From: Okamejei kenojei
Taxonomy: Eukaryota
Length of the DNA: 64,000 nucleotides
Direction: 5' to 3'
NCBI GenBank assembly: GCA_035221665.1
Contig: CM069140.1
Span: forward strand, 23,560,001 to 23,624,000
Each line of letters opens with the position of its first letter. Position 1 is the first letter of the stretch. Positions 15,001-62,327 of the stretch are shown in pieces. Both the position numbers and the translations under genes were made by a program. Below the pieces are notes generated by a model. It was not told where the DNA came from and ran no database searches. It was given only the letters and a program-made list of their open reading frames with translations.

Positions 15001-18000
15001 CCTGTAACTGCATGAGTTTCTTCTGGGGGCTGTAGTTTCTTCCCACATCCCAAAGGCATGCTGGTTGTTAGGTAAATTGACTAAACTATTCCCAGTGTGG
15101 ATGGCTGTTGGGAGAGTCAGAATGGGGGAAATGTTAATGGGCATATCAGGAAGAGCAGGTCGCATGCAAATAAGTGAGGGAATAGGATCGATGGGATTAT
15201 TCTGAAACCCATCACAAACTCAATGGGCCAAGTGGCTTCCTCCTATTTCATACAGCCAAATGAACAAAAAGTGAAAATAGGTGTCTTCAGCAGAACATTG
15301 GCAACTATCATTGGTACTTCCCTGTACCTTTGGGTTTGCTCATACCTAAATTCTTCTTCTCTTACCTGAACAACTATTTCCAAAGTATCCAAAATAATAA
15401 GGTTTGCTTCTGTTGCGAGGTTACCATCAATCAGTGCTTCATGTTCCAACTCTGCCCTTGATCTGCCATATACAAATATAGAGTCAGAAATTGTTCAGAT
15501 TTTATGCATGGTCTCCTAAAATGTCATGAATTCAGCCATAATTCAGAGGCTAGTGTAATATGAAGGATTATCATGTTGTGTGCTTTGAATTTAGTCTTTG
15601 TGAGCTAGAAATTAATTATAATATAAAACTAATATTTGAAATCAATATATTTTGGTTAGCCTTCAGTTTTTTTCCTTATGAGTACTTGGTGTTTCCATGA
15701 ATTGATTCCAAAAGCAGCAGACTCCCATGCCTCCCTAGATTTTGAGCATTCTGTGGTAGGCCTGGAAGCCAAGCTGTTTCCATCATTTTATCTCTCAGTA
15801 AATCTGCAGAATTCAGTGGTAAATTATTTGAAATACAATGTTGGGTAATGATTATCCCTCGGGATGCTAAAAACAAATTGCATACTTACTGCTTCCACCA
15901 TTGGAATGTGTTAAACAATAACCCTGCTGACCTACACAGTTGAGTTTCACAAATTGCAAATGACTACACACTGGAAGGGCTAAAAAGTACGACAATAACT
16001 CATACAGTCAAGTAAAAGTTCTACCCATGTCACTAGAAAGTGGGGAGGGGAAAACATGTTAAAATATAACAATTTGAAAGTGATATTTTCTACAATGGTG
16101 GGTACTCCTGAAATACACCCAACACCCAAGAGTCCACTCCTGAAATACACCCAACAGCTACTTTCATTTATTTATAATTTGATTAATCATGTGACACAAG
16201 AGTTAGATCTTTTGCACTTTTACTGCAAATATGTTAAATATATAATTGAATATTTATATATTTTTATGGCAATCATTTCTATTGCCTTTAAATCAAATTA
16301 ACTGCCACAATAATGTGGAATTCCCAATAGTGATCAAGGATAAAATGAAGTAAGAATGTAATTGAGTAATTGAGCCATCATGTGGTGGACTGTATATTTA
16401 GCGGTGCAGATAGATATACATTGAGGGTTGTGGGGAAATGCCAGAAGAGTTGAGGCCAGTTAACATTAGCCATCATCATACTGAATGATGGAGCAGGCTC
16501 AAGGAGCTTGATGGCCTAGTCCTGCTTCTATTTTCTTGTGTGTGTGTGTAAAGGGACAGATCAGGTTTGAAATTTAACGACTGCAAAATAAAATGTAAAT
16601 CTGGTTTTAAATAAAGACAAGACCCTTAGGAGGGGCAAGAATTGAACAATTAGTGGAAATCTATGGTGAGTTCCCCATAGATTTCTGCACCCAAATGCAA
16701 CAATGTATGGAAGAGGAACACACAAAGTAAGGTAGTGGCTCAAAGAGTAAATCAAACATTAATCAATATTGAAACCATCCTCTGTACGTGCTGCACTGAA
16801 AACTGAAAGCAGATAACCTCCCTTTCCACAATTCCCTGAGATTATATGTAAAGTGCACACTGGCAAGATTAACTTCATGAAGGGACAATAAATCATTTAT
16901 AAAAATTGTTACAGCAAAGAAACCTAACAAAAAAACACGAAAATATCAGTGCCATGCTGGTGACTCCAAAAATCAACATACATGGGTCAGCTTGAAATAT
17001 ATTTGACTAAAAGATCCTTGCAGCAATTTTCAACTGGCTATAGTCTACCATGATAATTTAATTATTGGGATGACAAAAAATTGAATAAGGAGTTGAGGAG
17101 ACAAGGGAGAGAGGAAGAACTATTCTCACCATAAGGTATAATATAACCTTAAAACATACTTTAAATAAATGTAGACAAACCACAAGTAACAAGATTATAG
17201 GAAGAAAGATGTATTTTTAAATGCGAGAGCAAAAAAAGGGGCAGAGTGGAGAAAAATGAAATGGACTCGAGACAAAGATGCAGAGAAAAATGGATGGATA
17301 AAATGAGATGGTAAAGATTCATGAGGAGATAGAAAAAAAACACCCAGTTTTCGTTTGTAAGATTTAGGCCCAGCATACCATGTTTGAATTAGAATACAAA
17401 AATACCAGTCATGTATTGTCATTACATGCCTTTGTAACCATCTAAAGGAAAGTAAAGTAATAACTTAATATATGAAATTCTACTGTTGTACGTGTCTCTT
17501 ATTACATGTAATACCTTCAATATGAAACTGCAAAAGATTAAGTCTCACATTTTGCATTTCATTATTCATGCTGTAATCTCTTTGTAAATTTTGTTTTAGT
17601 GCTTTAATCTTCAAGCCACATGCAGACCAGCAGAGGCATCAGTGCAAGCAGAGTTCTTCCACAGCTCTTAATGTCCAGTTGGTGCGCTTAGCAAACATTC
17701 TACTCAGCATTCAATTAAACGTACAGAAATAGCAATTGCACCAGTAGATTCAATAGGTCAAATTGTTTATAGATGAGTTGAATCTTTTAGGGTTTTAAAT
17801 GACTTTTTTTATTTGCTAACTGTCCTATACACTACAAGAAACTTTTGCTAATTATTATTTGGGCTAAGCCCCAGTGAAGTAAAGATAGGTTAGTGGCCAA
17901 GGAAGCATGAATCCAAATATTCAATATCTCGGGCCCTGGCATCTCTATCTTTCTCCCCCACCCTAGTCGCACCAGCTTCTCATTTTCACACCACGAACAG

Positions 18001-60890: not shown

Positions 60891-62327
60891 CTAGGGAATT
60901 AAACAGAGTTAATGAGATAGTGTAACAGAAAACACAGAGGTTTCTGTATCAGTAACTAACCATGATGTTGGTATGAACATCAAATGACTAAGGACAGAAA
61001 TTTCAATCCTATTTCAGCTTTTGTTAAATCGCTGTAAGCTATCAGATCCAATTCACTGCACAGGAAAAATAAATTAGAAGTTACAGATTTATCCATTGGA
61101 AGATTTAGTCAAGTAAAGGGCATGTTACCTCGGCATGGGCTGCAAAGATATTGTACTTAAGGCTTACGATCTAAGTACCCCAAAATAAAGTTCTTCAAAA
61201 TACAGGCTAAAATTCCTAACCAGCAACTTGTGAAAAACAAGAAAATTGCAGCAGCTTAAAATGTGAAAATACTGGAAACTCAGCAGGTCAGGCAGTATCT
61301 GCGGAAAGAGAAACAGTTAATATTTCAGCTGTGGGAATCTTTAAAGAGTTTTGAAGATTCCTGGACCCGAGATGTTAACTCTTTCTCTGTCCACAGATGC
61401 TGCCAGATCCGCTGAATGGATGACTTCCACAATTCCTTTGCGCTCTCGAAAGTTGAAAGTGAAGCTGGTGCTTTCTCAATAATTGAAAGTGACAAGTGCG
61501 GAGAATTATTTATTTAAGAAAGAACTGCAGATGTTGGAAAAATCGAAGGTAGACAAAAATGCTGGAGAAACTCAGCGGGTGAGGCAGCATCTATGGAGCG
61601 AAGGAATAGGCGATGTATTGGGTCGAGACCCTTCTTCAGACTGATGTGAGCAGGGGGCGGGATAAAGAAAGGAAGAGGCGGAGACAGTAGTAAGAACTAC
61701 TTATTACTTAATTACTTAAAGTGGGGAGAACTAGATGACTAATGTAGTAAAGCAGTCGTATAATCTTTTCATTCCAGCCTCAAGTATACCTATGAAACAT
61801 TGATGATCACTTGCAACAGTCCCTAAGAGATGTTAATGAATAAACATCCATGAATAACCATCCAAGAGTCCCAAAATCCATAATGAAACAAACCCCTAAT
61901 GTTCAATGTTGACAACAGTCTTGTCGTTGATTACATTAATGTCTGTTTGAGTAGAAATCATGAATCCAAGGATCTATCAGTCAGTTTGCACAACATTCAT
62001 TTTCATTTAATGATTCCCTTGTGCATCTCATGACTGCAGATTTTCAGTATGCCTTTACCTGTAACTGCTTCCACTCAGTGTGGCTCAGTGATAGCAACCA
62101 GCTGGCAGATTCCTTGCCACAGAGAATGCAGCAGATGTTTACTAAGGACAATCTCAAGCAGATCTGGGCTTGGATGGCCTGACTTCAGACGAGACCGTCT
62201 CCCGCCCAGTGCAGCAGTATGGGATAGACAGACATCCAGGCAGTGGAAAGGGTAATATATCGTAAGGCTGAGTTGCCTGCCACCAGTGGTAGATGTATGG
62301 AGGTGCGACTGCTTATATGAATGTTGG

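Follow-up and report, generated by a model that had tools for sequence, protein, structure and literature searches.

Minimal type I hammerhead ribozymes were described in the terminal repeats (pLTRs) of metazoan Penelope-like elements (PLEs) by Cervera and De la Pena (2014, PMC4209133), and what they do in PLEs is still debated (PMC8557442). An insertion cycle has been described for PAc, a Poseidon element of Anolis (Frangieh et al. 2024, PMC11167929), in which two internal reverse transcriptase (RT) start sites define a tail and both strands are extended; the PAc hammerhead is active only with protein and is not needed for insertion, and uncut RNA is inserted. Two other systems are close: the Neptune-clade PLEs (Craig et al. 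2021, PMC8557442) and the non-LTR retrozymes of vertebrates, whose survey included one chondrichthyan (Li et al. 2026, bioRxiv 10.64898/2026.07.22.740005). Among the papers listed in literature searches, there was no dedicated study of hammerheads or Penelope in sharks and skates, and supplements 2–3 of PMC4209133 contain no shark or skate names.

Here, we analyzed a 64,000-nucleotide stretch of Okamejei kenojei contig CM069140.1 (positions 23,560,001–23,624,000; hereafter, the window), which contains a dispersed repeat with such a motif. In our reading, to which we assign a probability of about 0.7, the repeats, which carry a minimal type I hammerhead motif, are pLTR stubs of a ~3.96-kb Penelope-like retrotransposon; the RNA from which they were copied was likely uncut, and the intronic copies here are probably catalytically silent. 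The motif itself is of a known kind, namely the published minimal type I hammerhead of PLEs.

The 28-mer CTGAAGA-A-GGGTC-TC-GACCC-GAAA-CGTC occurs exactly at 18116(+), 23100(−), and 40268(+), as stated in the original prediction. Its near-intact and decayed copies were also found where they had been listed, with one to three mismatches at 28152(+), 35295(−), 45191(−), 50038(−), and 61612(−), and those near 38925, 45287, 51297, and 58087 were recovered by a profile search of the window. This search, whose seed of copies close to the 28-mer biases it towards motif conservation, yielded 22 window copies (14 minus, 8 plus; ~1 per 3 kb), and the whole catalytic core was kept in only 5 of them. No 28-mer match appeared in 100 shuffled sequences. 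A 664-kb sample of the genome (the window, its flanks, and 48 spaced 10-kb stretches) contained 213 copies by profile (reversed sample: 0), which extrapolates to ~0.9 million copies. Throughout the 2.76-Gb genome, there were 48,215 exact 28-mer matches and 119,908 matches to a core-intact pattern (reversed-pattern control: 294), compared with ~4,000 in coelacanth and ~9,000 in Xenopus as given in PMC4209133. An Rfam check, which had been proposed together with the prediction, gave no hammerhead match at E ≤ 5 in the window.

The repeat is the pLTR end of a ~3.96-kb endonuclease-bearing PLE. It had originally been called SINE-like, a label that we abandon because the unit runs contiguously into the 3' UTR and the 5' leader of an open reading frame (ORF); a SINE would come with a Pol III head of its own and without a flanking coding parent, and here the coding parent is at the flank. 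Two motif copies (28152 and 40268) lie ~105–120 nt past the stop codon of a Penelope endonuclease C-terminus, as had been noticed at the outset, and the C-terminus was found ~105–245 nt upstream of the motif at 13 of 30 exact-match loci (two of the 13 overlap). The same C-terminus ends frames of up to 778 aa with a YIDD RT, a CX4CX2C linker, and GIY-YIG, i.e., a single ORF with RT and C-terminal GIY-YIG as in endonuclease-bearing (EN+) PLEs, with GIY-YIG matches (E = 2e-4 and 2e-3) just under Pfam's cut-off and a weak RVT_1 match. Locus L087 is a partial tandem: two motif copies share a strand at a spacing of 3,956 nt, and the first is followed ~160 nt later by a candidate ATG. This ATG lies within AAG/GTATGC (L087:2568–2578), which can also be read as a splice donor, and an N-terminal intron is possible. 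Tandem pLTRs (L087 and L091), inverted 5' copies (42 mirror pairs), and a 30–40-bp tail (two clusters of 3' ends) are all characteristic of EN+ PLEs. The linker CNRKKCNTC in loci L006 and L087 is of the CX2-5CXXC type between RT and EN; judging from the linker sequence, which is of a type shared with Nematis, the element probably belongs to Neptune.

The comparison with the described systems is as follows. Similar to PAc, the hammerhead is located at the pLTR–ORF junction and two 3' end points ~35 nt apart define a tail, whereas the linker is that of Neptune/Nematis and the candidate ATG follows the core by ~160 nt instead of lying at stem II (PMC11167929). The C-terminal GIY-YIG, Zn-finger-like linker, partial tandems, and inverted 5'-truncated copy are shared with Neptune-clade PLEs, as is the 30–40-bp tail, often at one end only, which PMC8557442 describes qualitatively; compared with that description, what we found here is a predominance of ~100-nt stubs that have their start at the core. 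As with the retrozymes of Li et al. (bioRxiv 10.64898/2026.07.22.740005), there are short PLE-derived units with a type I hammerhead and many dispersed monomers. Unlike those tandem arrays of two or more units, however, the stubs are solo or head-to-head, with target-site duplications and PLE-bounded ends, and head-to-tail hammerhead units were limited to a few short direct doublets elsewhere in the sampled loci, with none among the window copies.

Positions below are numbered from C3 of the core (= 0), with the predicted cut before +28. A subfamily A pLTR remnant at 17919–18206 (+) includes 197 nt of 3' UTR and an intact core (18116–18143) with a 2-bp stem I, and ends at ~+89. A 5'-truncated copy at 27883–28035 (+) comprises the C-terminal 50 codons and stop of the endonuclease ORF, with the C-terminus seen on the long RT + GIY-YIG frames; its pLTR end (28143–28243, +) has an intact core, one stem II mismatch, and a 2-bp stem I. 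At 40023–40359 (+), a frameshifted endonuclease C-terminus is accompanied by 3' UTR and a pLTR end with an intact core (40268–40295) and a 2-bp stem I, and a pLTR remnant at 61550–61690 (−) has ~53 nt of 3' UTR and a broken core. A weak third endonuclease C-terminus match (E = 0.005) was observed at 54051–54122(−), with no hammerhead copy found nearby.

The repeats are mostly left as ~95/130-nt stubs with target-site duplications. The solo stub at 23035–23128 (−), within intron 22287–24726, starts at the core (23127), which is intact with a 1-bp stem I, and has a 9-nt target-site duplication. It sits within another dispersed repeat (23129–23200 and 22960–23034, −), in sense orientation and downstream of a B-box-like motif; this host repeat is probably a tRNA-derived SINE, and Pol III read-through of it would include the stub's intact core. 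The core is broken in the tailed stub at 35194–35324 (−; CTCGAGA), the decayed stub at 38923–39001 (+), and the stub at 49988–50075 (−; GAAATGTC). The tailed stub is abutted near 35234–35324 by a broken LINE-type RT at 33851–35292(+) (RVT_1, E = 1.5e-20). The profile search also found decayed stubs at 49222–49319 (−), which was absent from the original list, and 58040–58124 (−), and a stub at 51246–51321 (−) with an internal deletion of GAAA and the cut site. A head-to-head pair consists of a left arm with the short end, an intact core, and a 0-bp stem I (45129–45221, −) and a right arm with the tail and a broken core (45282–45415, +). Profile and older-family searches located a heavily decayed head-to-head pair of an older family at 61266–61416 (no single strand), and more old-family copies lie near 27203–27302, 38579–38633, 40546, 41440, 45020, and 58640. 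Long inverted repeats at 8466–8737/63269–63527, 53482–53768, and 9084–9377 are probably MITE or DNA-transposon ends.

The anatomy agrees with the minimal hammerheads of PMC4209133 and bears out the proposal that a PLE carries a minimal type I hammerhead: CUGANGA, an unpaired nucleotide between 9 and 10.1 (the extra nucleotide after A9 that had been pointed out), G10.1–C11.1, GAAA, and a palindromic 15.2/16.2 without helix III are all the same, and so are the presence of the motif in both pLTRs, the prevalence of single motifs from truncated elements, and some opposite-strand pairs. The core (CUGANGA ... GAAA ... UH) is invariant across all subfamily consensuses. Helix II has a G10.1–C11.1 closing pair, A plus GGGT/ACCC, and a 4-nt loop, amounting to 4–5 bp versus 7–8 in Schistosoma (PMC4209133); among the masters a loop position alone varies, and the older family keeps R10.1–Y11.1. 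The ACGU self-duplex (−1.7 kcal/mol) would allow a helix III in a dimer, with none in the monomer.

Stem I is the deviating part. The original prediction gave it 1–2 bp, correctly, and it was 2 bp in 36 of 36 distinct young-family contexts, compared with a typical 4–5 bp and 2 bp in D. virilis in PMC4209133. The older family (CUGAUGA, GUU site, AGUU/AACU) has a stem I of at least 4 bp in 9 of 15 loci, and comparison of the two sequences indicates that the young-family stem I was eroded from 4–5 bp to 2 bp. The other old-to-young changes are N7 U to A, H17 U to C, and loop II, with 10.1–11.1 still paired. Within the old family, inspection by eye for the suggested stem covariation found none in stem I; a candidate compensatory change (2.1 U to C with 1.1 A to G) was rejected, as 41 AGTC-type copies mostly keep AACT. 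In predicted folds, the core strand pairs with downstream sequence, or with the tail in the full leader, with a stem I probability of 0.000, and further conserved leader blocks form a helix with the tail. The leader fold was not unusual against shuffles (z = −1.49).

A short stem I does not necessarily mean a dead ribozyme because Penelope of D. virilis is active with a 2-bp helix I (PMC4209133). Subfamily consensuses were built from 300 copies clustered on the 3' block, and clustering on +50 to +89 gave the same result. Only 1 of 28 motif columns (in loop II) varied among the five consensuses, versus 9 of 22 in the next downstream block (p = 0.003), with the core, stem II, and CGTC fixed, so that the excess of core conservation over the flanks sought by the original prediction is present across subfamilies. 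Individual copies, on the other hand, show as much decay in the core (0.052) as in the flank (0.048). This contrast between fixed masters and evenly decaying copies indicates that selection acts on the masters only.

Such constraint on the masters would be expected if the young hammerhead were active in the intact element, where a protein-assisted dimer of two pLTRs or two RNAs would trim the RNA and the stubs would come from the uncut fraction. We give this somewhat less than even odds. The five consensuses are identical at all catalytic positions, in stem II, and in the ACGU palindrome, position 1.1 varies between A and G only, both of which pair with U2.1, tandem pLTRs exist at L087 and L091, and the PAc hammerhead cleaves with protein (PMC11167929). 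Conversely, stem I is uniformly 2 bp in the young contexts, none of the upstream/downstream duplexes is predicted to be stable (+0.1 to +0.4 kcal/mol), and no copies start at +28, as shown below. This alternative differs from our reading only in how much cleavage matters.

Copy ends were mapped in 60 stretches that cover the first 70 hits of a search anchored downstream of the cut site and contain 72 anchored subfamily-A copies. At the 5' side, 22 copies extended upstream, 41 started at −7 to +6, 6 at +12 to +18 (one misassigned by the script), and 3 at +31 to +34; thus, 41 of the 50 non-extending copies start at the 5' edge of the core, and none of the 72 starts at +28, the predicted GUC cut site. 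A by-eye tally over 100 search rows, in the same classes plus +28, gave 37, 52, 4, 7, and 0, and the pattern agreed in 92 sampled copies from all young subfamilies. At the 3' side, 48 copies ended at +87 to +94 and 20 at +120 to +131. Target-site duplications of at least 7 nt flanked 13 of 25 solo stubs versus 17 of 600 mismatched flank pairs, and the solo stubs are therefore separate insertions. Among 42 head-to-head (mirror) pairs in the fetched loci, the 35-nt tail was on one arm in 36, on neither in 6, and on both in 0 (p = 4e-8).

That starts concentrate at the core's 5' edge and are absent from the GUC cut suggests that the template was uncut RNA, whose own start is likely at this edge. 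The lack of +28 starts is no proof of a lack of cleavage because cleaved RNA may not serve as template. Also, the 5' ends are spread over ~14 nt, many with microhomology, and such a pile-up could also arise from a hotspot of repair or template switching. The base before −3 starts was G in 36 of 76 rows by eye (vs 27%, p = 1e-4), after 24 of the 100 rows had been dropped (18 because they repeated one of two recurrent junctions, 5 as point mutants of extended copies, and 1 as a duplicate); this is a weak indication of a cap-derived G because ~10 of the G come from inverted element sequence. The two recurrent junctions were tried as new non-autonomous families and rejected: the commoner is a stub inside a larger repeat sharing at least 1.7 kb and the other shares flanking context, and both are read as passengers because of this shared context. 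In loci L311–L320, the stub with an inverted tail at its 5' end sits inside this kind of multiplied larger repeat (at least 1.7 kb, 92–98% identical), accounting for 14 of the 100 rows.

The 5' pile-up coincides with an initiator-like YCAGTCT just before the core. This opens the possibility that the young-family motif has lost its ribozyme role and has been retained either as an internal promoter or as a leader structure that binds protein, in line with the erosion of stem I from 4–5 to 2 bp and the predicted pairing of other conserved leader blocks with the tail. The pLTR of D. virilis Penelope has an internal Inr/DPE promoter (PMC2377424). However, every old–young change falls at a position that hammerheads tolerate, which a promoter would not require, and we consider this explanation unlikely. 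The pyrimidine tract and CAG before the core could instead be a 3' splice site, with splicing supplying a better stem I strand: the sequence ending in CCCTGACCAG and continuing as TCTGAAGA resembles an acceptor, and in D. virilis Penelope the intron end maps to helix I (PMC4209133). Yet GT..AG ends were absent among the best 15 of 75 joints and the 5'-truncated copies have no common upstream exon, leaving this quite improbable.

Returning to stubs copied from uncut RNA, we propose a cycle modeled on PAc. The element's RNA would start at the initiator-like sequence directly before the core. RT may prime at the nicked target and start internally at +90 or +125, as for PAc, and copying of the short 5' leader to its end would leave a 95–130-nt stub, whereas read-through RNA would give the copies reaching into the ORF. 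Extension of both nicked strands, each from a different start site, would yield a mirror pair in which a single arm has the tail. The hammerhead may be functional only when two pLTRs form a dimer, probably with the help of the element's protein, and would be kept by selection on the transposing masters, not on inserted copies. The likeness to PAc thus extends to uncut RNA as the insertion substrate and to extension of both strands, which were demonstrated in vitro for PAc (PMC11167929) and are deduced here from genomic sequence. A bolder version, which we put forward tentatively and hold to be doubtful, is that the insertion cycle of Penelope has left its fossil record in the ~0.9 million stubs. 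Each stub would be a full-length copy of a 5' leader that is capped, stays uncut, and starts three bases before the hammerhead, made from one of two internal RT starts that a dimeric RNP uses once each on the two nicked strands. Expansion of the lineage would then have coincided with stem I erosion and sequestration of the core by the tail, so that cleavage was off during insertion.

Hammerhead action on host pre-mRNA is an idea already in print for PLEs in general, and the minus-strand copies had been predicted to be transcribed within the DOCK7 pre-mRNA. A minus-strand gene does span the region: one transcript contig joins eight exons at 12007–29908, a minus-strand exon matches DOCK6 in the PDB, a DOCK-C2 exon at 55680–55862 (−; E = 6.8e-18) shows that the gene reaches at least this far right, and the gene's DHR-2 lobe C is found 16.5 kb to the left of the window. 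Because the contig joins exons from 12.0 to 29.9 kb, the three tested copies (18116, 23100, and 28152) are intronic, and the remaining window copies are likely intronic as well; the prediction holds to this extent, with the paralogue assigned at the level of DOCK6/7/8-type. The RNA evidence consists of transcript contigs, which carry no information on starts, ends, or strand.

In its strong form, the prediction would have sense-strand intronic copies cut the DOCK pre-mRNA. Two core-intact copies are on the gene's strand (23100 and 45191), and intronic contigs show that the pre-mRNA region is represented in the RNA runs. Nevertheless, these two copies have a stem I of 1 and 0 bp and are 22 kb apart, which makes an effect on the host pre-mRNA unlikely; with 14 of 22 copies on the gene's strand, there is no significant depletion, and the exons on either side of the 23100 copy are joined in a spliced transcript contig. 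We regard cutting of the host transcript as highly improbable, and the copies are probably no more than the usual intronic debris as far as the host gene is concerned.

What this window adds to a known kind of motif is counts and useful insertion footprints. The ~10^5 core-intact copies are an order of magnitude above the vertebrates counted in PMC4209133, and the old and young families, which differ in stem I, form a natural pair for comparing cleavage. The end points of the copies support in vivo the picture obtained in vitro with PAc, where the inserted RNA was uncut and RT used two internal start sites.
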